NCBI GenBank assembly: GCA_030531905.1 | Contig: JAUNMG010000001.1 | Span: forward strand, 56,569-120,568 | Direction: 5' to 3' | Length of the DNA stretch: 64,000 bases | Source: a bacterium | GTDB lineage: Bacteria > Bacillota_I > Bacilli_A > RF39 > UBA660 | Shown: positions 6,330 to 50,846 of the stretch, one piece after another | Position numbering within the stretch: the stretch's first letter is position 1 | Layout: each line of letters begins with the position of its first letter | Translations under genes and position numbers: made by a program | The notes under the pieces: generated by a model | The model's input: only the letters and a program-made list of their open reading frames with translations | What the model was told of the DNA's origin: nothing | Database searches by the model: none

Positions 6330-6785
6330 ATGAATATAAATAAAATGTCAAAAGATGAATTAGAATTATTATCAAATAAAGATATTACATATTACTTATT
6401 GGAAGATGCTAATAAATCAATCAATACAGCAGATTTATTCAAGAAAATCATCAAATTACTTGAATTACCTGAATCTAGCTTTGATGCTAAGATAGGAGAT
6501 TATTATACTTCTTTAGCGACAGATAAAAGATTTATAATGTTAGAAGACGGTACTTGGGATTTAAGAAGTCGTCATACATCAGATAAAGTTGTAAAAGTAA
6601 TGGATACAGATGATGATGAAGATGAATCCGAAGAAGATGAAGATTCTAAGGATGATGTAAATGATGAAATAGAAGAAGATAATTATGATGATACAGACGA
6701 TGACGATGACATTTATGATGATGCAGATGATGATTTGAAAGATTTAGTAGTTATAGACGAAGATGAACTAGAATTAGAACAATAA
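6330..6785 (+). CDS. rpoE: DNA-directed RNA polymerase delta subunit
   Basis: HARE-HTH-like N-terminal domain followed by a long poly-Asp/Glu acidic tail. Length 151 aa. This protein is typical of Bacilli and Erysipelotrichia. Confidence 0.85.
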   Translation: MNINKMSKDELELLSNKDITYYLLEDANKSINTADLFKKIIKLLELPESSFDAKIGDYYTSLATDKRFIMLEDGTWDLRSRHTSDKVVKVMDTDDDEDESEEDEDSKDDVNDEIEEDNYDDTDDDDDIYDDADDDLKDLVVIDEDELELEQ

Positions 6786-12996: not shown

Positions 12997-13092
12997 TAAG
13001 AAAAGCTTGCAAAAACAAGAAATAATTGATATACTACATATGCATTTAATTACTATGATTATTATGTAATCATGGCGGAAGGAGAGAAAAAT

Positions 13093-24871: not shown

Positions 24872-25087
24872 ATGATTTCAATAAAAGAGAATGTTAATAG
24901 TGTTGAAGAATTCAATTATTTATATGATGCTGTTGGATGGGGAAGCTATGACAAAAAAGTATCAGAAAAAGCAAAAGATGAATATAAGAAATATCAAGTA
25001 AAAACAATAAGTCCGGAGGAAAAAGAGTATTTAGAAACTTTAAAAGCAATAAGTAATAAAATTGATGATAAAGCAAAGAGTGAATAG
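24872..25087 (+). CDS. small ORF, possible GNAT N-terminal remnant
   Basis: 71 aa. The EFNYLYDAVGWG motif resembles the start of GNAT domains. It overlaps the integrase fragment ORF, so its status is uncertain. Confidence 0.25.
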   Translation: MISIKENVNSVEEFNYLYDAVGWGSYDKKVSEKAKDEYKKYQVKTISPEEKEYLETLKAISNKIDDKAKSE

Positions 25088-25148
25088 AGTGTATCATGTA
25101 GATATACTCTATTTTTATATGTATATCAAAGATAAGGAGAGTGATAAA

Positions 25149-25409
25149 ATGATTAGCATAAGAAAAAGAGGCAAAGTATATCAATATTGTTTTGAAGCAG
25201 GAAAGGTAAATGGAAAAAGAAAACAAATAACTAAATCAGGTTTTAAAACTAAAAATGAGGCATATATAGCAGGACAAAAAGCATATGAAGAATTTATAAA
25301 TGGAATAACTAATGTAGAGTGTAATATGCTATATGAAGATTATTTAGATTATTGGATTAAAGAATATTTTAAAAATATAAAAAAACAATATAGATCACAT
25401 CTATACTAA
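25149..25409 (+). pseudogene. tyrosine-recombinase (phage/ICE integrase) N-terminal arm-binding fragment
   Basis: MISIRKRGKVYQYCFEAGKVNGKRKQITKSGFKTKNEA matches the AP2-like integrase N-terminal domain. The ORF ends after about 87 aa, before any catalytic domain. Confidence 0.6.
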
Positions 25410-25571: not shown

Positions 25572-26714
25572 ATGAATAATTGTAATGATTGGGAACAAAT
25601 AAGAAAAAAACAAGAAGAATATAGAAAAAAATGTAAGTTTTATTATGTAAAAGGTCCAACGGGACCAAAAGGTGAAAAAGGAGATGTTGGTTCACAAGGA
25701 GAAAAGGGAGATAGAGGTATTCCTGGACCTGCAAGTATTGATGTCGGAATTACAGAAACTGTAGAATCTTCTGAAGATGCTAAAGTAGAAAATGTTGGAA
25801 CAAAAGAGGATGTTATTTTGAATTTCAAAATACCAAGGGGAGAACAAGGAATCGATGGTAAAATTGGTCCACAAGGTATTCCTGGTCCTAAAGGTGAAAA
25901 AGGTGATATTGGTCCACAAGGAATAAAAGGTGAAAAAGGAGATCAAGGACCATCAACTATTCAAATTGGAAATATTGAAACAATAGAATCTAATGAAGAA
26001 GCAGAAGTTATAAATGTTGGTACACCAGTAGATGTAGTTTTAGATTTTAAAATACCAAAAGGAGAAAAAGGCGACCAAGGAGATATTGGACCAAGGGGAT
26101 TACCAGGAGAAATAGGAAGGACAGAACACATTGCTATAGATGAAACTGAAACTTTAGAACCAGGGGAGCCTGCTCAAGTCATGGATACATTTGAAAATTG
26201 GGTACATCATTTAGCGTTTTTAATTCCAAAAGGAGAAAAAGGCGACGTTGGAGAAAGAGGACAACAAGGACCTGCAGGTCCTCCAGGAACAGAGTTTGTA
26301 TCTGCTTATGGGATTAGATATTCAATGGTTACTACACAACTAACATTATCGCAAGGGACTGATACAATAATACCACTACCTGAAAAAGGGACAGCTTTTC
26401 TTACAGATTATCCAGATGGTAATTCAATAAAAATAAAAGAAACTGGAACATACCTAGTATCATATTCATTATGTGGTGCAACAAATGAAGATTGTTCATT
26501 AACTATGTCTGTAAGAGCAAATGATATACTACAACCAGCTACGAATGCAACTAGTGAGTTTCAAGCACAAATAATTAACTGCATAAGTGGTTCAACTATT
26601 GTAGCTCTTAGTAAAGATGATCTTGTTACATTAAATGTAAAGGCATCTATGGCAGTTAGTCTAATATTTAATGGAAGTACTAATGCAGTTCTAAGCGTAA
26701 CTAAAATACATTAA
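25572..26714 (+). CDS. collagen-like triple-helix repeat protein with BclA-like C1q/TNF-type C-terminal domain
   Basis: Four G-x-y tracts (GPTGPKGEKGD...) interrupted by three repeats of a roughly 40-aa non-collagen module. The C-terminal ~150 aa has a BclA-CTD-like pattern (ETGTYLVSYSL). No signal peptide. Confidence 0.75.
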   Translation: MNNCNDWEQIRKKQEEYRKKCKFYYVKGPTGPKGEKGDVGSQGEKGDRGIPGPASIDVGITETVESSEDAKVENVGTKEDVILNFKIPRGEQGIDGKIGPQGIPGPKGEKGDIGPQGIKGEKGDQGPSTIQIGNIETIESNEEAEVINVGTPVDVVLDFKIPKGEKGDQGDIGPRGLPGEIGRTEHIAIDETETLEPGEPAQVMDTFENWVHHLAFLIPKGEKGDVGERGQQGPAGPPGTEFVSAYGIRYSMVTTQLTLSQGTDTIIPLPEKGTAFLTDYPDGNSIKIKETGTYLVSYSLCGATNEDCSLTMSVRANDILQPATNATSEFQAQIINCISGSTIVALSKDDLVTLNVKASMAVSLIFNGSTNAVLSVTKIH

Positions 26715-26803: not shown

Positions 26804-28660
26804 ATGCAAATAATAAATGATAATACTATTGTAATAAATAATAGTGAGGAATTAAAACAAGTATTGAGCGAAGAAAATAATTATAGTTATATTTATTTAG
26901 GAAATGACATTACAATGACAAGTGGTTTTGTTATAAATAATAATAAAAGTAAAGTTATTGTTGATGGAACTTACAACAATACTAAGCATACTTATACAAA
27001 TAACTTGAGTTCAGAAGAAAATGTTATAAAGGTAAGTACAACTAATAAAAAAATTATATTAAAAAATATGAATATAATATCTTCACAGGGTTATGGAGTT
27101 ATTTATGTTCCTTCTCATCCAAATTATTCTAATGTAGTAGTAGAATATAATAATATAAATTTTAGTGGAATAGAACTATCATGTAATTATTATGGAACAA
27201 CTAAAATCGTTGATTCTCTTATAGAGGCAAAAGACACCAACAGTGTTTCTACTCAAAGGGTATGTGATTCCAATAGAATTATAATTGGAGGAAATACTAC
27301 AATTACAAGTAGTTCTACTAAAAATACAGTTTTCTTTTTTAATGATGTTATACCATCTTATATTAAAATAGTTCCTAATAGTAATGTAAATATTACAACA
27401 GATAAAGAACTTATGAATGGAACTAACAGACTAGATTTAATAGTAGGACATGGATCAGAATTTCTTTTAACGACAGGAAATGGTTTTGCAATAACAACAA
27501 CACATGGTGCTAGAAATGTTTTAATAGAAGAAATGGCTAAATTTACATTTATAGAAAAAAGTCACCAAAGAGTTCCTATGTGGAATGTATTTGGAGATTT
27601 TACGGTTAAAGAAGGAGCAAGTATATCAGTAATAAATACGTATATGAACACACCTTCTGATAATTATAATATTTATTTTAAGGGTACAAATCAAAAGTTT
27701 ATACTGGATAATCCAAAATATGTGAATATTTACACTAAAAATGCTAATGTAGTCTATACTAATAATCCAGTTGATTTTATATTTAATTTTAGTAGAATTA
27801 ATTTGTGGTTATATGCCCTTGATTATACTTCAGCTTGTAATATTGATGATACGCCAGCATTTTGTTGGTATAAAGAAGATACACCAGTTAAAATAACAGG
27901 TATCTTAAATAAAGATAGTACTACAGTTACATCACATAATTTTACAGATACTGAATTAGCTTCACTGCCTGATATAAATAATTTTACACTACAAAATATA
28001 AAAATATTAACTATTGGAATGCTTAAGATAAACGTTCATCCAATTATAGATTCTATAAATGCAATTTCAGGACATACTATACCTTACGCAAATGTCAAAA
28101 TAGAATACAATAATAAAAGTTTAACAGCAACAGCAGATGAAAATGGCCTTTTCGAAGTAAATATCGATTCTATTATTACAGATGATACAAGAATTAAAAT
28201 TATTTCTTGTTTAAACGGCTGCTTTAGTGAAAGAAAAGTAACTACTCCATTTATGGGAGAGTTAACTCTTTTAAAAGTAACAGAAAATATTCCGTTTAGT
28301 ATGATTCCATCTTCTACTAATCCAACTATTTTATCTAAAAAAAATGAAACAGTGGTAACTGTTGTTGATAGTAGAATAAATAGTACTAATTGGAGATTGT
28401 ATATAAATTTTATAAATCCAATGATAGAAGCAACTGGTAAAGTTTTAATAGATTCACTATTTTTTAAGAAATTTGATAATGAGAAAATTATTTTGAAGAC
28501 ACAAAAAAAGTTAATATATGAATCAAATGATAATGGTGGAAGTGTAAATATTAGTAATATTACATTTTCTACTGATAAAGGATTGTTTTTAAAACCTAGT
28601 AAGAATTTATTGGAAGATGAAGATTATTCCACATTAATAGTTTGGAGTATTGAGGCATAA
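26804..28660 (+). CDS. large right-handed beta-helix (pectate-lyase-fold-like) protein with C-terminal Ig-like domain; paralog of 41393..43267
   Basis: The N-terminus MQIINDNTIVINNSEELKQVL...GNDITMTSG is typical of parallel beta-helix proteins. An Ig-like block (ISGHTIPYANVKIEY...TADENGLFEV) lies near the C-terminus. About 45% identity to the minus-strand paralog. Confidence 0.55.
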   Translation: MQIINDNTIVINNSEELKQVLSEENNYSYIYLGNDITMTSGFVINNNKSKVIVDGTYNNTKHTYTNNLSSEENVIKVSTTNKKIILKNMNIISSQGYGVIYVPSHPNYSNVVVEYNNINFSGIELSCNYYGTTKIVDSLIEAKDTNSVSTQRVCDSNRIIIGGNTTITSSSTKNTVFFFNDVIPSYIKIVPNSNVNITTDKELMNGTNRLDLIVGHGSEFLLTTGNGFAITTTHGARNVLIEEMAKFTFIEKSHQRVPMWNVFGDFTVKEGASISVINTYMNTPSDNYNIYFKGTNQKFILDNPKYVNIYTKNANVVYTNNPVDFIFNFSRINLWLYALDYTSACNIDDTPAFCWYKEDTPVKITGILNKDSTTVTSHNFTDTELASLPDINNFTLQNIKILTIGMLKINVHPIIDSINAISGHTIPYANVKIEYNNKSLTATADENGLFEVNIDSIITDDTRIKIISCLNGCFSERKVTTPFMGELTLLKVTENIPFSMIPSSTNPTILSKKNETVVTVVDSRINSTNWRLYINFINPMIEATGKVLIDSLFFKKFDNEKIILKTQKKLIYESNDNGGSVNISNITFSTDKGLFLKPSKNLLEDEDYSTLIVWSIEA

Positions 28661-41392: not shown

Positions 41393-43267
41393 CTATTCTT
41401 CAATACTCCAAATAAGTGTTGTATTATATTCTTCATTTGCTTCTAAGGCATTATTTTGTAAAGATAAGAGTGGACCTTGTTCCTTAGACCAAGTTATTTT
41501 TGTAGCTTCAGGTGTTCCATTATTATTAATTCCTGTTAATACTAGTGTTGGTATTTCATTTAAAATAACACTTGTATTATCAAATTTTTTAAATATTATG
41601 GCATTAGGAAGTGAAAAGTTGTTTGCCGAAGTTAATGGACCTGAGAGATGAGCATAAAGTTTCCAGTTAGAACTTACAACTCTACTATCTACTATATTAA
41701 CAAATATTTGATCACTTTTTTTGAAAATAAGAGGTGTTGTTGTTACATCATCAAGAGCAAAAGAAAAATTACTAGTATTACTATTCAAAGTAAGTTCTCC
41801 ATTATGTGGTGTAGTAATAGTTCTCGTTTTATAAACAAAACTATTACCAACATTAACTGTTATTGTAATTTCAGTATCATCTTCAATTGGTGTTGGTATA
41901 GTGCATTCAAAAAATCCGTTTTCATCAGCAGTTACCGTGTAAGACTTACTATCATAAGAAATCATAACATCAGCAAATTCTATAGTATGACCACTAATAG
42001 TAGTAGATGTTTTAGTTATAGGATGAATATTTAAAGGATATGTTCCTATTGATAATTGTTTTCTATTTTGAAATGAAAAGTTAGTTAAATCTGGAAGAAT
42101 TGCTAGTTCCTCATTACTAATATTATGAGTTGTAATACTTGTAGAACTGTTTGTTATAGTACCTTCTATTGTTAGAAAATCATCTTTTAAATACCAAGAA
42201 AAGTCTGGTAAATTATCGATACCTCCAGCATTTGTAAAAGTATTAGAATTTTGCCACATATTAATTCTATTTAATGAAAAATTAAAGTTAAGAGGATTAT
42301 TTGTATATAATATATTTGAATTTTTACTATATAGAATTAAACTTTTAGGATTATTTAAAATTAACTTTTGATTAGTACCTTTAAAATGAATATTATAATT
42401 GTCGCTAGGAGTATTATCATAAGTGTTAATTATATAAACATTAGCGCCATTATTAACTGTGAAATTTCCATATACATTCCACATAGGAATTCTTTGATGA
42501 TTATTTTCTATAAAGTTTAAAGTTGCCCTTTCATCAATTAAAACATCAGTAGCTCCAGTAGTAGTATTGAAAGAAAAACCATTGGCGGTTACTAAATTAA
42601 CTTCAGCATCATGAAGTATAGTAAAATTAAGTTTAAAAGTACCTCTCATAAATTCATTGTAAGTACTAGTTAAATTGACATGACTATTAGGAAGAAATTT
42701 TATGTATGGATTACCTGTATCATTTCGAAAATAAAATAAAGAATAATTTTTGGCATCACTTGAGATAATAGTATTTCCACCAATTTCAATATGATCTGCT
42801 TCGAATGATTCTTGGGCTTCTATATCAGATGTATCTTCAATTGTTATATTACAATCTATTACTCTTATAGTCCCATATGGATTAAATCCCATTTCTGTAC
42901 CATTGAATTTAATATTATTATATTCAGTACAAACATTTTTATATGTTGTATAAACTGGAACATGTATAATTCCAAATGGGTTTACTGAAGAAACATCCAT
43001 GTTTTTAAATATAATCCGTCTATTTGTAGGACTAGCAGTAATGACATCAGTATTTTCTACACTATTCATTCCTGTATATGTATATCTAGTATTTAAATAG
43101 GTTCCGTCAATAATAACTTTTTCTTTATTTTTACTGATAGTTATTCCAGAAGTAAGATTAATATTATTTCCAAAATAAATATAAGTATAATTATTATCTT
43201 CTTCTAAAACAGTTTTTAATTCATCACTTGTTGTAACTACAACAGTATTATTATTAAGTATTTGCAT
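41393..43267 (-). CDS. large beta-helix protein, paralog of 26804..28660
   Basis: N-terminus MQILNNNTVVVTTSDELKTVLEEDNNYTYIYFGNNINLTSG. Ig-like block ISGHTIEFADVMISY...TADENGFFEC. Similar C-terminus (LIWSIEE). Confidence 0.55.
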   Translation of the reverse strand: MQILNNNTVVVTTSDELKTVLEEDNNYTYIYFGNNINLTSGITISKNKEKVIIDGTYLNTRYTYTGMNSVENTDVITASPTNRRIIFKNMDVSSVNPFGIIHVPVYTTYKNVCTEYNNIKFNGTEMGFNPYGTIRVIDCNITIEDTSDIEAQESFEADHIEIGGNTIISSDAKNYSLFYFRNDTGNPYIKFLPNSHVNLTSTYNEFMRGTFKLNFTILHDAEVNLVTANGFSFNTTTGATDVLIDERATLNFIENNHQRIPMWNVYGNFTVNNGANVYIINTYDNTPSDNYNIHFKGTNQKLILNNPKSLILYSKNSNILYTNNPLNFNFSLNRINMWQNSNTFTNAGGIDNLPDFSWYLKDDFLTIEGTITNSSTSITTHNISNEELAILPDLTNFSFQNRKQLSIGTYPLNIHPITKTSTTISGHTIEFADVMISYDSKSYTVTADENGFFECTIPTPIEDDTEITITVNVGNSFVYKTRTITTPHNGELTLNSNTSNFSFALDDVTTTPLIFKKSDQIFVNIVDSRVVSSNWKLYAHLSGPLTSANNFSLPNAIIFKKFDNTSVILNEIPTLVLTGINNNGTPEATKITWSKEQGPLLSLQNNALEANEEYNTTLIWSIEE

Positions 43268-43676
43268 AATATCACCTTCTACGTAGTAATTTATGAAGCA
43301 ACTTTACTATTGAATAATTAGTTTGCATTGGTTTTTTGAATTTTACATTGTCTTATAAAAAATATATAAAATTTCACTCGAAACGTGAGTCTTTTTATAA
43401 TATTTAGGACTACTTTGAAATTTTTTTGTTCTGAACAAATATATTTCAAAGATTTTTATTGCTATTTCTAACTTTTTTAAACATTATCACGATTATCATC
43501 AAAACTATGACTATTCATATGAATTTTCTTCTTTATTATGTGGCTTTCTAAAATTAATTATTAAAAGTTCTAAAACTATATAATTAAAGTATTAAATAAA
43601 AATTGAGTATGGACTTATTTACCTTGTTTTAAATTAAAATAAGTGTTAAAATACTGACAGTATCTGAGGTGAGAAT

Positions 43677-43845
43677 ATGTTTGAATTAGTATCAAAATAT
43701 AAACCAAGTGGATATCAACCAGAAGCTATTAAATAATTGGTAGAATATTATAAAAGAAACTAATTAGTATTTGATCATAATAAGACATAAGTAGGACAAC
43801 TTTATTCAGAACTTAAAGAATTATTTCCAAGTAATTATTTTTTTT
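43677..43845 (+). pseudogene. degraded uvrB 5' fragment (copy A)
   Basis: ATGTTTGAATTAGTATCAAAATATAAACCAAGTGG... is identical to the uvrB start. A premature TAA follows 19 codons in. Internal deletions, then the uvrB-like segment ...CAACTTTATTCAGAACTTAAAGAATTATTTCC. Confidence 0.7.
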
Positions 43846-43965
43846 TTTTATTTTATACTATGATGTTAGAATAAGGCAGATACACGGATCATGTTGATGA
43901 ATTTATATTAAAAATTGAACCAAAAACTTTAAAGATTATAATATTATTAATTTGTAGGGGGAAAT

Positions 43966-44880
43966 ATGAGATTAACGACTATTATTGAAGAATACTATAG
44001 CTTGTTTTGTAAAATGAATTATTTATCAATTTTATCTACTTGGGCGTTAGAAGATGATGAAAACATTCAATTTATAGTTGGAAAAATATTAATAAATGAT
44101 AATTTTAAAAATATAGATATGGAAGAAATTTTAAAATACTTACATAGTTCAATTGATGACAATAACTTGAACCATGAAATGATAAGATACTTAAATAATT
44201 TAATAATATTTTCTGAAAAATATAATATTGATTCATTTGAAGAAATAGAAAATAGAATTCTAGAATTGTGGAATCAACATCATATTTACGATGAATCATT
44301 ATTAAAATATATTATTAGAATAGATTCAGATAATTTATATAAAATATATATTGATATGGTAAGAGAAAATTTGATTAAGGATCCAAATATTCGTATTGGT
44401 ACTTCGTCTGAACCATTGTTTACTATGCTTCCTAAAAAGCAAGAATTATTAATTTATAATTTGGGGGTTATTGCTAATCCATTAGTAGATTGGACCATAT
44501 TAAAAAATGGAACAATTGCACTAGAATCTTTTATTTGTGAATATGAAACGAGTGAAAATGAGATGTTAAAGGAATACTATCATGATATAATAATGATTGC
44601 TATAAAAGGTAATATGTGCGTATTTAATAATAGATATTGTAAAAATCCAAAATATGGTTACTTTGAAAGCGAAACAGGATTATATTTATTATCATTATTT
44701 AATGATAAAAATATACAATGTTTACATAATAGACTAAGTGATGATAATTTTATAAAAGAAATAAAGGAGTACTTAGTGAGCGATGATGGATATAATCATC
44801 AATTGGAATTATATAAAGAACATAATCCTATAGGAGATAGCGGTTTAAATCAAATAAAATTATTAAGGAAGAATAAATAA
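43966..44880 (+). CDS. hypothetical protein (cargo of uvrB-5' cassette A)
   Basis: 304-aa ORF with RBS GGGGGA. No recognisable motifs. Followed by the terminator hairpin AACAAGG...CCTTGTT plus T-run. Confidence 0.5.
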   Translation: MRLTTIIEEYYSLFCKMNYLSILSTWALEDDENIQFIVGKILINDNFKNIDMEEILKYLHSSIDDNNLNHEMIRYLNNLIIFSEKYNIDSFEEIENRILELWNQHHIYDESLLKYIIRIDSDNLYKIYIDMVRENLIKDPNIRIGTSSEPLFTMLPKKQELLIYNLGVIANPLVDWTILKNGTIALESFICEYETSENEMLKEYYHDIIMIAIKGNMCVFNNRYCKNPKYGYFESETGLYLLSLFNDKNIQCLHNRLSDDNFIKEIKEYLVSDDGYNHQLELYKEHNPIGDSGLNQIKLLRKNK

Positions 44881-44984
44881 TTTAATAAAAAAATGATAAT
44901 AGTAAGAACAAGGTATTTTGGTGATTGCCTTGTTTTATTGCATATAAAATGATAAAATACAAATAATTAAAAGGGAGGTTTATT

Positions 44985-45302
44985 ATGTTTGAATTAGTAT
45001 CAAAATATACACCAAGTGGAGACCAACCAGAAGCTATTAAAGAATTAGTAGAAGGTCTTAATAATAAGAAGAAAGAACAAGTTTTGTTAGGCGCAACAGG
45101 AACAGGAAAAACTTTTACAATTGCTAATGTTATAAAAGAAACTAATAAACCTACATTAGTACTTGCTCATAATAAAACACTTGCAGGACAACTTTATTCA
45201 GAACTTAAAGAATTATTTCCAAATAATCATGTCTGTTTTTTCATTTCATATTATAGAAATACCTTAAAAAACTTTTATTCGAACGTTTTTAGGTTTATTT
45301 AA
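44985..45302 (+). pseudogene. uvrB 5' fragment (copy B), 105-codon ORF retaining Walker A
   Basis: Nucleotides about 45010..45258 are identical to uvrB 46836..47085. The sequence then diverges, with a stop after 15 more codons and a terminator hairpin plus T8. Confidence 0.8.
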
Positions 45303-45441
45303 TTCCTCGCAAATACCATAAAAAGACTAAATAAAACTAGATAATAAAATGTAAATTTGTTGCCGAAATGCGTATCCATTCGTGTCCTTATTTTTTTTAA
45401 TAAATGTATTATATAATTTATAAATTTTTAGGAGGTTCAAA

Positions 45442-46605
45442 ATGAAAGAATATTTTTATAAAAAAGAATATAAATATATGTATTTGAGTACTATATCATA
45501 TAGTTTTGCAAATACTTTGATAGGAACATTTGGAACGGTGATGTTATACAAAAATGGAATACCAATATGGCTTATACTATTAATATATGGATTAAGATTT
45601 GGACTAACAGGATTTACTACACCACTGTTTGTAACAATATCGTCAAAATTAGGGATAGCAAAATGTATCCTAATATCTAATATTTTTAGTATTATTTCTG
45701 CATATATGATGCTAGATGGAACAAATTTATACAAAAATATAATTATATTTATATTAGCAATGGGATTTATGGGACTTTCTAATCCATCAAATGATTCATT
45801 ATCTAGTAAATATGTAAATACAGAACACAGGGGAAGATATAATAGTTTTATAAACATAAGTAAGATAATAGGAACTGCATTAGCAAGCTGCTTAGTTGCT
45901 TGGAGTGTAATAACAGAGAATAATATAATTTTATTCGCAATAATTACTATATTTTTTATATTGCAATATATATTTATTAAAAAAATAGATTATAAAGTAG
46001 AAATTAAAGCAAGTGCATTTAAAACAACTATGGAATATATCTTAAAAACTAAAAGTAGATATAAAACAATTTATGCTTTAACTACAAATCAAATAATAGA
46101 AAAACAATTTAAGCCACTTTACTTATATATTGTTTTAAAAAATTTTTCAGTATTTTCTTCAATAGTTATAGTATCGCTATTATTACAAATAGCTACTATA
46201 ACATTGATTGGTAAATATTCTGATAAAAATTTATCAAAATCAAATAATTTAGTATCAATTATTAAGACTACAATAACGGGTATATATTTATTCTCTACAA
46301 ATAAAGTAATGATATCTATAAATAATACATTAAGTGATAATTTTGCAAAGGTATACGAAACATCTATTCAGACGTCAATACAAAATATTATTAAAGATTC
46401 AAAAGAAGATAGTGACCTTTTATCAGCAGTAGGTCAAATGAGTTTATGTTTTACAGAAGTTGTTATATTTACTATACTTTCAATATTAAGTATCTTTATT
46501 AAAGATAAGATATTTTATATAATATTTATATTATCAATGATTTCAACTATTGGAATTAATTTTAATATACAAAAATCAAAATTGCAAAATAAAACCATTG
46601 GTTAA
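45442..46605 (+). CDS. multi-TM transporter-like membrane protein (MFS-like, about 12 TM)
   Basis: 387 aa, highly hydrophobic with about 12 helices. RBS AGGAGG. Cargo of cassette B. Confidence 0.5.
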   Translation: MKEYFYKKEYKYMYLSTISYSFANTLIGTFGTVMLYKNGIPIWLILLIYGLRFGLTGFTTPLFVTISSKLGIAKCILISNIFSIISAYMMLDGTNLYKNIIIFILAMGFMGLSNPSNDSLSSKYVNTEHRGRYNSFINISKIIGTALASCLVAWSVITENNIILFAIITIFFILQYIFIKKIDYKVEIKASAFKTTMEYILKTKSRYKTIYALTTNQIIEKQFKPLYLYIVLKNFSVFSSIVIVSLLLQIATITLIGKYSDKNLSKSNNLVSIIKTTITGIYLFSTNKVMISINNTLSDNFAKVYETSIQTSIQNIIKDSKEDSDLLSAVGQMSLCFTEVVIFTILSILSIFIKDKIFYIIFILSMISTIGINFNIQKSKLQNKTIG

Positions 46606-46810
46606 CTAAATATGGAAATATGATATAACTATAATTACAAAAACATATAAAAATATAATGTTTTATCAGCTTGTAGAAATTTGTAGTCGAGATGTGTGTC
46701 CTATGCGTATCAACCAAAAATTTGACTTATTTAATCAGTTCTAGGACACGAATTTTTTATAGTTAAACACGAATTCTATGGTTGTTATGAGTTATAATAA
46801 GGAGGTCATT

Positions 46811-48760
46811 ATGTTTGAATTAGTATCAAAATATAAACCAAGTGGTGATCAACCAGAAGCTATTAAAGAATTAGTAGAAGGTCTTAATAATAAGAAGAAA
46901 GAACAAGTTTTGTTAGGCGCAACAGGAACAGGAAAAACTTTTACAATTGCTAATGTTATAAAAGAAACTAATAAACCTACATTAGTACTTGCTCATAATA
47001 AAACACTTGCAGGACAACTTTATTCAGAACTTAAAGAATTATTTCCAAATAATCATGTCTGTTTTTTCATTTCATACTACGATTATTATCAACCGGAAGC
47101 TTATGTTCCATCTACTGATACATATATAGAAAAAGATTCGTCTATTAATGATGAAATAGATGAATTAAGACATGAGGCTACTAGTAATTTATTATCATAT
47201 AATGATGTTATTGTAGTTGCATCTGTTTCATGTATATATGGTATTGGTGAAGTAGAAGAATATAAAAATAAAATGTTAACATTATCTGTTGGTGAAGAAT
47301 TAGATAGAAATCAAGTATTAACTAAACTTGTTGATATGTTATATGAAAGAAATGATTTGGACTTTAAAAGAGGAACTTTTAGAGTAAGAGGCGATATTCT
47401 AGAAATTATTCCAGTTAATCAGAATAAAACAGGATATAGAATAGAATTTTTTGGTGATGAAATAGATAGAATTAGTGAAATAGATGTTTTAACTGGGGCA
47501 ATTATTAATAATAAAAAAACTATTAGCCTATTCCCGGCTAGTCACTTTGTAGTTAGTGATGAAAAGCTAAAAGATGCTATTTTAAGAATAAGAGAAGAAC
47601 TTGCTGAAAGATTAGAAGAATTAAAAGCTGATAATAAACTTTTAGCAGCAGAACGACTTGAACAAAGAACAAATTATGATATTGAAATGTTAGAAGAAAC
47701 CGGATTTTGTTCTGGAATAGAAAATTACTCAGCTCCAATGGCTGGAAGAAAAAAAGGAGAAACTCCTACCACATTAATGGATTTCTTTCCTGATGATTAT
47801 TTATTAGTAGTAGATGAATCCCATGTAACATTGCCTCAGGTTAGAGGAATGTATAATGGAGATAGAGCTAGAAAAATGAATTTAGTTGAATATGGATTTA
47901 GACTTCCAAGTGCTTTAGATAATAGACCTTTAAAATATGATGAATTTGAGAAGAAAATTAATCAAGTAATATATGTTTCTGCTACTCCTGGTGACTTGGA
48001 ATTAGAACATACAGCTGGCAAATATGTAGAACAAATAATCAGACCTACAGGATTACTTGATCCAACTATAGATGTTCGAAAATCAGAAGGTCAAATAGAT
48101 GATTTAGTTGGGGAAATAAATGAACGTATTAAGAAAAATGAAAGAGTACTTATAACAACTTTAACAATTAGGATGAGTGAGGAATTAACTAATTACCTAA
48201 AAGAATTGGATATTAAAGTCGCATACCTTCATTCAGAAATAAAATCTTTAGAGCGACTTCAAATCATCCATGACTTAAGAGCTGGTAAATATGACTGTCT
48301 AGTTGGAATAAATTTATTAAGAGAAGGTTTGGATATTCCAGAAGTATCCTTAATTGCTATTTTAGATGCTGATAAAGAAGGTTTCTTAAGAAGTAATAGA
48401 AGTTTGATTCAGACAATTGGTAGATGTGCAAGAAATGCAAATGGTCATGTCATAATGTATGCTGATAAAATAACTGATTCTATGAAAGAGGCGATTGAAG
48501 AAACTTCTCGTAGAAGAAGTATTCAGGAAAAATATAATAAAGAACATGGAATAATTCCTCAAACTATAAATAAACAAATCAGAGAAGTTGTTAGTAATGT
48601 AGATACAGAATCTAAGAAGTCTAATAAGAAATTATCTAAAAAAGAGCTTGAAAAGAATATGGAACTTATTGAACAAGAGATGAGAGAAGCAGCTAAGAAT
48701 TTAGACTTTGAACGTGCTATGGAATTAAGAGATATTTTATTTGAAATGAGATCACAATGA
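46811..48760 (+). CDS. uvrB: excinuclease ABC subunit B
   Basis: Walker A GATGTGKT, helicase motifs, the UvrB beta-hairpin region and a C-terminal UVR domain. RBS AAGGAGG before the ATG at 46811. The ORF-track start at 46778 is spurious. Confidence 0.93.
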
Positions 48761-49665: not shown

Positions 49666-49695
49666 TTGACGAACGTTAGTTTGATGTGTATAATA
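49666..49695 (+). promoter_or_regulatory. sigma-A-like promoter for tnpB with embedded Cheo-box-like sequence
   Basis: TTGACG, 18-nt spacer, TATAAT. The spacer contains CGAACGTTAGTTTG, which resembles the Firmicute LexA box CGAACnnnnGTTCG at 12 of 14 positions. Confidence 0.4.
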
Positions 49696-49725
49696 ATAAG
49701 GCATAAACATCAAGGTGGTGGCAAC

Positions 49726-50846
49726 ATGTATAAAGCATATAAATTTAGATTATATCCTAATACTAATCAAAAGATTCTTATCAATAAGACATTTGGATGT
49801 GTAAAATTTGTTTATAATTATTTTTTAAATGAATGTAGAAAAAAAGGATATCAAAAATATTTTGATATGTGTAAAGCATTAAAAGAATTAGAAAATGAAT
49901 ATCCTTTTTTAAAAGAAGTTGATAGTTGTAGTTTAAGGTGCAGTATATTCAATTTAGAAGATAGTTACAAAAATTTCTTTGCTAAAAGAGACCAGTATCC
50001 AAAGTTTAAAAATAGGTATAGTAAACAAAGTTATAGAACAACATGTATTATAAGTAGTTATAAAGGTAAAAACTATAGTAATATAGAAATAGATTTAATT
50101 GATAAAAAAGTTAAACTACCAAAAATAGGATTAGTTAATATAAGAGGATATCGTAATTCAAGAGAAATAAAAGGAAAAATAATTAATGCAACAATAGAGA
50201 AAGAGGCAACTAATAAATACTATGTAAGTATAATAATAGAAGAAAAAAAATAGAAAGAGAAAAAGTGATTCCAAATAGTATAGTAGGAATAGATTTAGGA
50301 GTAAAGGACTTAGTAGTAACCTCAGATGGAGAAAAATTTGGAAATAAAAAGGAACTATTAAAAAGAGAAAAACAGTTAAAGAGATTACAAAGAAAATTAG
50401 CAAGACAAATAAGAAATAGTAATAATTACTTAAAAACAAAAGAAAAAATAGCTAGAATATATAGTAAAATAAAAAATAGTAGAAAACATAATATTATAGA
50501 TATTGTAAATAAACTAGTTAGAGAACATGATATTATTGTAAGTGAGCATTTAAATGTCAAAAATATGAGTAGAAATCATCATCTGTCAAAATCTATATTA
50601 GATGCAAGTTTTAATAAGATATGTGAATATATAAAATGGAAAACAAAAATACAAGGAAAATATTATTATCAAGTAGATACATATTTTCCGAGTAGTAAGA
50701 AATGCAGTCATTGTGACAATATAACAATTAAAACGAATAACTTGAATGTTAGGAGCTGGATATGTGATAAATGTGGATGTGAAAATGATAGAGATATAAA
50801 TGCAAGTATAAATATTATGTTTGAAGGATTAAAAAAATATTACTAA
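49726..50846 (+). pseudogene. tnpB: tnpB (RNA-guided endonuclease-type IS605 OrfB), reading frame split at an A8 tract
   Basis: N-terminal part MYKAYKFRLYPNTNQ... (49726..50253). C-terminal part with RuvC-I (VGIDLGVKD) and zinc finger CSHCD...CDKCG (50265..50846) sits in the -1 frame. The junction is GAAGAAAAAAAATAG. Confidence 0.7.

Follow-up and report, generated by a model that had tools for sequence, protein, structure and literature searches.

Repeated uvrB 5' ends point to an attachment site for integrative elements inside a DNA repair gene of uncultured gut Bacilli

Why should a DNA repair gene start three times in a row before it is finally read through to its end? The question arises from a 64,000-nucleotide (nt) stretch of bacterial DNA (GTDB lineage Bacteria; Bacillota_I; Bacilli_A; RF39; UBA660; GenBank assembly GCA_030531905.1, contig JAUNMG010000001.1, positions 56,569 to 120,568), hereafter called the window, in which the 5' end of uvrB is present three times, always in the same orientation. 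Such a three-copy array is far beyond chance. We consider it very probable that uncultured gut Bacilli host a family of integrative elements whose attachment site is codons 87-88 of uvrB, located in an invariant block, and that the window contains two decayed units of this family without an integrase. The reading is based on a junction common to independent loci, on recombinase genes linked to this junction and on identical elements or cassettes in divergent hosts. Loci used for comparison are given by their L numbers.

The three copies are called A, B and C in the order of their position. Copy C (46811-47080) opens the intact uvrB gene, and copy B (44985-45254) differs from it at 5 of 270 nt (98.1% identity), including nt 266 and nt 269 of the gene. 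Directly 3' of codon 90 both sequences split: copy B ends with ..CATATTAT and continues with AGAAAT, copy C with ..CATACTAC and continues with GATTAT. The reading frame of copy B stays open to 45302, which results in an open reading frame (ORF) of 105 amino acids (aa) at 44985-45302 with the Walker A motif inside. In copy A the reading frame is closed by a TAA at codon 19, and ~74 and ~10 nt have been lost in two deletions. In this way two units are delimited: unit 1 spans ~43865-45246 and is flanked by a degraded repeat, and unit 2 spans ~45247-47072 and is flanked by a direct repeat of 270-272 nt. An initial annotation, made by a model from the DNA letters and their predicted ORFs, had already described three direct copies, a degraded copy A, a copy B that is nearly identical to the intact gene before it diverges abruptly, and the retained 105-aa ORF, and our repeat comparison of the window bears out all four. 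Under the reading given above, the features of the array are the following.

43624-43652, + strand: native-type uvrB promoter before copy A (TTGTTT, 17 nt, TGT-TAAAAT), read from the sequence
43677-43864, + strand: copy A, the oldest displaced uvrB 5' end, now a pseudogene, from sequence comparison
43966-44880, + strand: cargo 1, 304 aa, interior gene of the older (first) element
44906-44935, + strand: terminator-like hairpin followed by UUUUAUU, 3' of cargo 1 (centroid -11.9 kcal/mol)
44930-44958, + strand: native-type promoter before copy B (TTGTTT, 17 nt, TGA-TAAAAT), right end of element 1
44985-45254, + strand: copy B, displaced uvrB codons 1-90, the former surrogate 5' end from element 1
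45246-45248: attL of element 2 with the left crossover at about uvrB nt 262-264, inferred from relatives
45255-45400, + strand: left end of element 2 with a conserved 22-mer (45316-45337) and a box (45353-45387) holding two tandem 10-11-nt repeats, AAATTTGTTGCCGAAATGCGTATCCATTCGTGTCC
45442-46605, + strand: cargo 2, MFS-type transporter, 387 aa
46677-46810, + strand: right end (leader) of element 2 with a box (46677-46715) and a ribosome-binding site, aligned with L098, L092, L089 and L045
46811-47072, + strand: copy C, surrogate uvrB 5' end from element 2, joined to the host-derived part in the same reading frame
46811-48760, + strand: intact uvrB, 649 aa, chimeric, with nt 1 to ~262 from the element and the remaining part from the host

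The UvrB protein of the window is 82-88% identical to the UvrB proteins of 80 species-level genomes, which belong to uncultured gut Bacilli or 'Tenericutes' metagenome-assembled genomes and include CAG:417 and Candidatus Faecimonas. Two of these genomes, L045 and L065, also contain a displaced uvrB fragment, the end of which falls precisely on codon 90; as cargo, L045 carries a peptide deformylase gene and L065 a group of five ORFs over 3.7 kb. Homology to the window comprises both the left ends, which follow the displaced fragment, and the right ends, which precede the restored gene. The 22-mer from the left end of element 2 was found in nine metagenome contigs (L082-L090), and in all nine it is located ~60 nt 3' of a uvrB fragment ending at codon 90. 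The left end of element 2 has homologues in L045, L065 and L082-L090. The cargo in the nine contigs includes an NT5C-like nucleotidase together with a GH2 glycosidase and a ParA/ParB-type module, proteases occur among the related loci as well, and the cargo is almost always co-oriented with uvrB. The truncated uvrB ORFs of L045 and L083-L090 nearly always have 12 extra codons with a similar tail (RNTxKTxLFxxF followed by the stop) and a length of 102 aa; the tail in the window (45255-45302) has 15 codons. Such tails may reflect either conserved left-end sequence or selection on the peptide.

Duplicate uvrB starts are present in only three of 81 related loci, and these three are not mutual closest relatives. 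In a set of 79 related loci, uvrB starts only once in most cases. A sensitive self-search of 80 loci for further decayed uvrB starts gave noise only, and viral contigs scanned with the 22-mer and with the integrase contained nothing relevant. The initial annotation had proposed serial site-specific insertion into uvrB at about this point and had called for a comparison of orthologous loci. This comparison supports the proposal, with the insertion ~265 nt into the gene, because the exact junction is common to independent genomes with different cargo. The annotation had also stated that the same copies with identical flanks and no polymorphism in relatives, together with junctions that have no core sequence in common, would speak for one ancient duplication; what we found are rare duplicates, varied cargo and a common junction.

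A fuller form of the older unit exists in L079, in which the native promoter, the ribosome-binding site, 18 nt of uvrB, the left-end box and a decayed RhuM-like (PDC-S05) gene are followed by a homologue of cargo 1, a hairpin with promoter and an intact uvrB. The promoter stretch of copy B is 90% identical to the stretch ahead of uvrB in L079, and 18-19 nt of the copy A promoter region, aaataagtgttaaaatac, are also present upstream of uvrB in many single-copy loci. A public contig of 1253 nt (L001, SRR24915804) independently contains the end of copy A, cargo 1 and the start of copy B. In L083 and L088 the displaced copies carry an element-type leader of their own or integrase remnants, a sign that insertion was serial at these loci as well. 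Between L087 and L090 uvrB is 98-100% identical and the cassette is the same, but no alignment is possible over the 600 nt that precede the displaced copy, which reflects either a differing genomic context or further array members in one of the two.

Which enzymes could act at this site? In L064 two overlapping genes directly upstream of leader and uvrB encode full-length tyrosine recombinases, which have 399 and 432 aa. A truncated Phage_integrase ORF adjoins the right end in L089, and an intact homologue of this integrase is located directly upstream of leader and uvrB in L081. A database search with the family integrase resulted in at least 504 homologues. P0032 and P0033 are ~90% identical to the L089 integrase fragment, and in ten out of ten of their contexts (L092-L101) a 403-aa and a 431-aa recombinase gene overlap and end ~260 nt before uvrB. 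The elements in these ten contexts are larger than 11.5 kb and carry PemK, helix-turn-helix regulators and ATP-binding cassette genes. Some of the family integrases contain an Arm-DNA-binding domain; apart from that they match only generic Phage_integrase, Phage_int_SAM_3 and, weakly, Xer-like models, and integron-integrase models stayed far below the cut-off even for these proteins. The claim of integron-like cargo without an integrase is therefore not supported for the family, as its larger members carry two tyrosine recombinase genes beside the surrogate uvrB start. By sequence comparison, the units in the window appear to be integrase-less derivatives of such larger members.

Integrase remnants were detected at the uvrB site of L074, L088 and L065, in addition to the fragment in L089, which indicates that simple decay is common. 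In L089 (~6500-6650, oriented) a second copy of the N-terminus of an 869-aa ORF replaces the N-terminus of the integrase, and in L074 (5263-6047) codons 1-146 of the second integrase have become joined, through a deletion, with the region of the uvrB ribosome-binding site. A profile search of the window found only an unrelated, stand-alone N-terminal fragment of a tyrosine integrase (25062-25409, ~85 aa, Arm-DNA-bind_4, E=3e-7). It is located just upstream of a collagen-repeat/BclA_C gene (25572-26714) and is probably the scar of another integrated element.

The position of the crossover can be read from pairs of loci that have the element in common and differ in the host. Between L098 and L100 the identity is 100% across more than 11.5 kb of element, with the integrases and the leader, plus uvrB nt 1-263; from nt 264 it is 65-75%, and the downstream genes are different. 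The integrase-less NT5C+GH2 cassette of L082 is 98.6-99.2% identical to that of L084, L085, L087 and L090, whereas the displaced uvrB fragments beside it are only 78.5% identical and host-specific differences reach nt 261. As host differences run to nt 261 and the identity of the element to nt 263, we place the crossover at nt 262-264 (codons 87-88), which is the start of a long run of invariant codons. The differences between copies B and C at nt 266 and nt 269 are as predicted from this position. Furthermore, the identity of the L098 and L100 elements through nt 263 supports the earlier proposal that each incoming cassette brings a replacement 5' end. Comparison of displaced with in-frame copies gives a ratio of nonsynonymous to synonymous substitutions (dN/dS) of 0.05-0.14 at dS values up to 1.1, with zero stops, which implies that both copies diverged as parts of working genes, and in L045 and L065 the displaced copy is closer to the relatives of the host than the in-frame copy.

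Both ends of the elements contain a box, AAATTTGTGGCCGArATGyGTrTCC-ATkCGTrTC, which holds two tandem 10-11-mers, and the right end has two further copies of the 10-11-mer in opposite orientation; in the leader of element 2 there are two direct GGACACGAAT-like repeats (46742-46753 and 46765-46774). The box is found on the uvrB strand only, either 98-138 nt before the start of uvrB or ~100 nt after a displaced copy, and the pattern matches twice in the window at an expectation of zero. A right-end box is present in 10 of 79 related loci, seven of which have neither an integrase nor a duplicate within reach. L003, L007, L011, L018, L019, L066 and L075 have a single uvrB, and a box leader separates its start from the native promoter (~100-190 nt upstream of uvrB). 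A box leader without integrase or duplicate suggests a fossil right end, and in these seven loci the 5' end of uvrB would accordingly be derived from an element.

We assume that the box repeats are arm-type binding sites of the integrase; where the integrases were deleted, in the window as in L090, the missing stretch ends just outside the box. A promoter-like sequence (TTGTTT-17-TGnTAAAAT) and a hairpin precede the leader in L089, L098, L092 and L045. Both are deleted in unit 2, the right end of which is also without the integrase genes that autonomous relatives have at this place. Unit 2 has kept the left-end and right-end boxes as well as both uvrB repeats, with the MFS gene as its sole gene, and unit 1 has kept the repeats and lost the left-end box. 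A riboswitch-like RNA in the conserved uvrB leader was also considered and discarded, as its fold is no better than that of shuffled sequences (z=+0.97); as tandem 10-11-mers, the leader repeats fit protein-binding sites better than a riboswitch.

Genome comparison thus brings out the common junction, the crossover position, the linkage to integrases, the horizontal spread and the tandem stacking, and a route to the present array can be proposed. The right end of a complete element would consist of a pair of overlapping tyrosine recombinase genes, then a hairpin and a promoter of the uvrB type, followed by a leader of ~130-190 nt with repeated 10-11-nt motifs, a ribosome-binding site and uvrB nt 1 to ~262. 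Recombination at nt 262-264, presumably catalyzed by the integrase pair, would shift the host promoter together with codons 1-90 to the left extremity of the insert and would leave the displaced host end behind as a truncated ORF of 102-105 aa. The repair gene remains whole because the surrogate 5' end of the element is joined to what is left of uvrB; in the window the reading frame is restored over all 649 aa, with the first ~263 nt travelling with the element. Units without an integrase would move by integrases supplied in trans, and a circular form would join the surrogate uvrB nt 1-262 to AGAAATACC. In the window, an L079-type element with the RhuM-like gene and the 304-aa gene would have entered first and displaced copy A, and this unit would later have lost its left end together with the RhuM-like gene; this order of integration and later loss is suggested by the fuller form of the older unit in L079. 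A second element with the MFS gene would then have entered the restored uvrB, pushing copy B aside and contributing copy C. Both units of the window are decayed or non-autonomous derivatives, similar to cis-mobilizable elements (CIMEs), which were stacked by accretion.

Several observations weigh against an attachment site in uvrB that was used in this way. The 64-kb window contains no integrase of the uvrB-site family, and activity at this locus is not demonstrable. Neither an excised circle (attP) nor a complete autonomous element with both ends was recovered in the collections searched, and the left ends of the elements in L064 and L092-L101 are located beyond the 10-kb flanks. The right end of element 1 is without a box-type leader, and the stretch after copy A is unlike the left end of the family. 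At 98% identity the host or element origin of copies B and C is not separable, and gene conversion may have homogenized the two.

Other explanations need no attachment site. It is very improbable that the array was created during assembly from the 272-nt repeat: copies B and C, 98% identical over 270 nt, are able to confuse short-read assemblers and several related contigs stop near the uvrB start, but the join of copy A, cargo 1 and copy B is seen again in an independent contig, the succession of copy B, left end, cargo, right end and uvrB matches more than 12 independent assemblies, and substitutions tell copies B and C apart. A simple direct repeat with two nearly identical copies is also what would be left by a single segmental duplication of the uvrB 5' region in the distant past, inherited vertically and with unrelated genes drifting in later. 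The rarity of the duplicates (three of 81 loci, not mutual closest relatives), the near-identical cassette adjoining host fragments of 78.5% identity, the identical element in hosts whose uvrB diverges from nt 264 and a dN/dS of 0.05-0.14, which is incompatible with one copy decaying in place, make such a history extremely improbable. The dN/dS values, together with element-borne 5' ends that are identical across hosts, also rule out two further origins of the 270-nt repeat, a giant target-site duplication generated by the insertion and local duplication in tandem. Integration of circles with a captured uvrB fragment by RecA (Campbell-type), without a dedicated recombinase, would produce exactly the observed topology by a single crossover with uvrB; the homology of ~270 nt is long and the units in the window have no integrase. 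We regard this as very unlikely, because independent crossovers all fall within a few nucleotides at the end of the homology, where homologous recombination would scatter them, because donor and recipient fragments are as low as 78-82% identical, which makes a poor RecA substrate, and because tyrosine recombinase genes invariably adjoin the surrogate end in the large members. Two further mechanisms were dropped: a diversity-generating retroelement, as the differences between copies B and C are not adenine-specific, and Xer/dif-type (IMEX) integration, as dedicated integrases are located beside the site.

A different matter is whether the integrase-less units of one or two genes are debris at all, or whether they are mini-elements under selection that are non-autonomous, serviced in trans and use the displaced uvrB promoter as an expression platform. 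The NT5C+GH2 unit has spread between hosts without an integrase, the deletions in the units of the window and L090 spare both arms and stop just outside the box repeats, and the orientation of the cargo as well as the missing terminator between copy B and cargo 2 would suit expression from the displaced promoter. However, the support for mobilization in trans is indirect, the contig of L082 has little length and low coverage, the integrase remnants in L065, L074, L088 and L089 point to ordinary decay, and the older unit of the window is itself decaying, as is evident from copy A and from the loss of the left end of unit 1. We therefore treat selected mini-elements as a possibility, albeit a doubtful one. 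Somewhat more speculative is the idea that the integrase-less units (MFS; NT5C+GH2, deformylase and others) constitute a cassette system, in which minimal units, reduced to two recombination arms and a surrogate uvrB start, would be carried from species to species by integrase pairs acting in trans and the cargo would be expressed from the displaced promoter.

Both cargo genes have a Shine-Dalgarno sequence, in agreement with the earlier description of a single cargo gene with its own ribosome-binding site in each unit. The transporter-like nature of cargo 2 was confirmed by a match to Pfam MFS_1 (E=2.6e-13). The defence domains that had been suggested as a target for profile searches did not turn up: cargo 2 has no match in PADLOC or NCBIfam and cargo 1 has none in Pfam, PADLOC or NCBIfam. 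Exact-protein look-ups gave nothing for UvrB or the MFS protein and a single short contig for the 304-aa protein.

The regulatory features proposed for the array were less well supported. According to the initial annotation each displaced copy is followed by a hairpin terminator. A consensus terminator scan of 43200-47200 returned zero terminators, and folding identified the hairpin at 44906-44935, between cargo 1 and copy B, as the sole terminator-like structure; it was missed by the scan because of its long loop and is also present in L079. The stretches 3' of copy A and 3' of copy B fold no better than shuffled sequence (flanking stretches of the units, z = +0.2 to +1.8), so that neither the scan nor folding places a terminator between copy B and cargo 2. 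Rfam has no RNA family at the array locus. Promoters inducible by DNA damage had also been postulated, but the search for LexA boxes gave matches at chance level, none of them at the array locus or near its promoters. Read-through into the cargo from the displaced uvrB promoter may take place, and the 105-aa peptide may be expressed as well.

How does the array compare with known systems? The initial annotation knew of no described element class of this kind; in fact, the SXT element at prfC and the dusA islands use the same strategy. In the dusA-specific elements (for example IMEVchUSA3) a tyrosine integrase directs insertion into the 5' part of a conserved housekeeping gene and a new promoter together with a new N-terminus restores the ORF; these elements occur in tandem arrays, and one array member has two integrases (PMC8409611). 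By analogy, the uvrB elements appear to follow a similar strategy with regard to the 5' target, the surrogate N-terminus, the tandem arrays and the paired integrases. They differ in the target gene, in the hosts, which are uncultured gut Bacilli instead of Proteobacteria, and in the length of the surrogate, which is ~35 residues in dusA and ~88 codons including the Walker A motif in uvrB. SXT/R391 elements are conjugative, ~100 kb in size and equipped with a single Int and Xis, whereas the uvrB elements are small to mid-sized, have an integrase pair and contain no conjugation genes in the parts seen.

Streptococcal CIMEs have kept attL and attR and lost the integrase and transfer genes, and accretion, i.e. 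the entry of a further element into the att site that carries the target gene's end, leads to tandem arrays (PMC5704250). Unit 2 has retained both attachment sites and has lost the genes for integration and transfer in the same manner, and the same is true of unit 1 except for its left-end box. Decay to an integrase-less unit followed by accretion is thus common to ICESt1/ICESt3-type islands with their CIMEs and to the uvrB array, whereas the former use gene 3' ends or tRNA genes with short repeats and the latter a 5' end with a coding repeat of ~270 nt. SpyCIM1-type islands of Streptococcus pyogenes are inserted in the 5' region of another DNA repair gene, mutL. SpyCIM1 interrupts the expression of mutL and acts as a growth-phase switch, whereas uvrB is rebuilt by a surrogate 5' end. 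Integron arrays resemble the uvrB array in the serial single-gene cargo of one orientation downstream of a promoter and in units without a recombinase of their own. However, the array contains no IntI or attI and no integrase, its units are bounded by uvrB 5' copies and arm-like repeats instead of attC hairpins, and the related full uvrB elements carry their own integrases. In the literature we found no report of a mobile element inserted into uvrB; the sole match to 'into uvrB' was an engineered insertion involving plasmid pCF10. As far as the literature searched shows, uvrB is new as a target, while the strategy of targeting a 5' end is already known and each feature has a precedent; within this strategy the dual integrases and the surrogate of ~88 codons are unusual. 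Small units without an integrase are numerous in the uvrB family.

Some other features of the window are recorded here. A TnpB-type (IS605 OrfB) gene at 49666-50846 is split by a frameshift into ORFs of 195 and 193 aa (HTH_OrfB_IS605, OrfB_IS605, Cas12f1-like_TNB). It is located downstream of uvrB between uvrA and a radical-SAM/SPASM gene, where L098 and L099 have two small ORFs. Large predicted surface proteins with weak Big_6 matches are encoded at 41393-43267 (- strand) and 26804-28660 (+ strand); the former has an additional weak WxL match and is located directly upstream of the array on the opposite strand. The sole Rfam match in the window is an L31-Firmicutes ribosomal protein leader at 13053-13084, just at the gathering score.

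Taken together, the locus points to a previously unreported attachment site inside uvrB and to a widespread family of elements in uncultured Bacilli of the human and animal gut. An element-type box is present in the uvrB leader of 10 of 79 related species genomes, i.e. about one in eight, and in these genomes UvrB probably owes its N-terminus with the Walker A motif to a mobile element. Cargo of many kinds has gathered at the site (transporters, glycosidases, a deformylase, toxins and candidate defence genes), and a uvrB fragment that ends at codon 90 and is followed by AGRAAYA can be used as a marker to annotate such islands. If the integrase-less units did form a cassette system, it would represent an integron-like platform for gene capture on a DNA repair gene of uncultured gut Bacilli.

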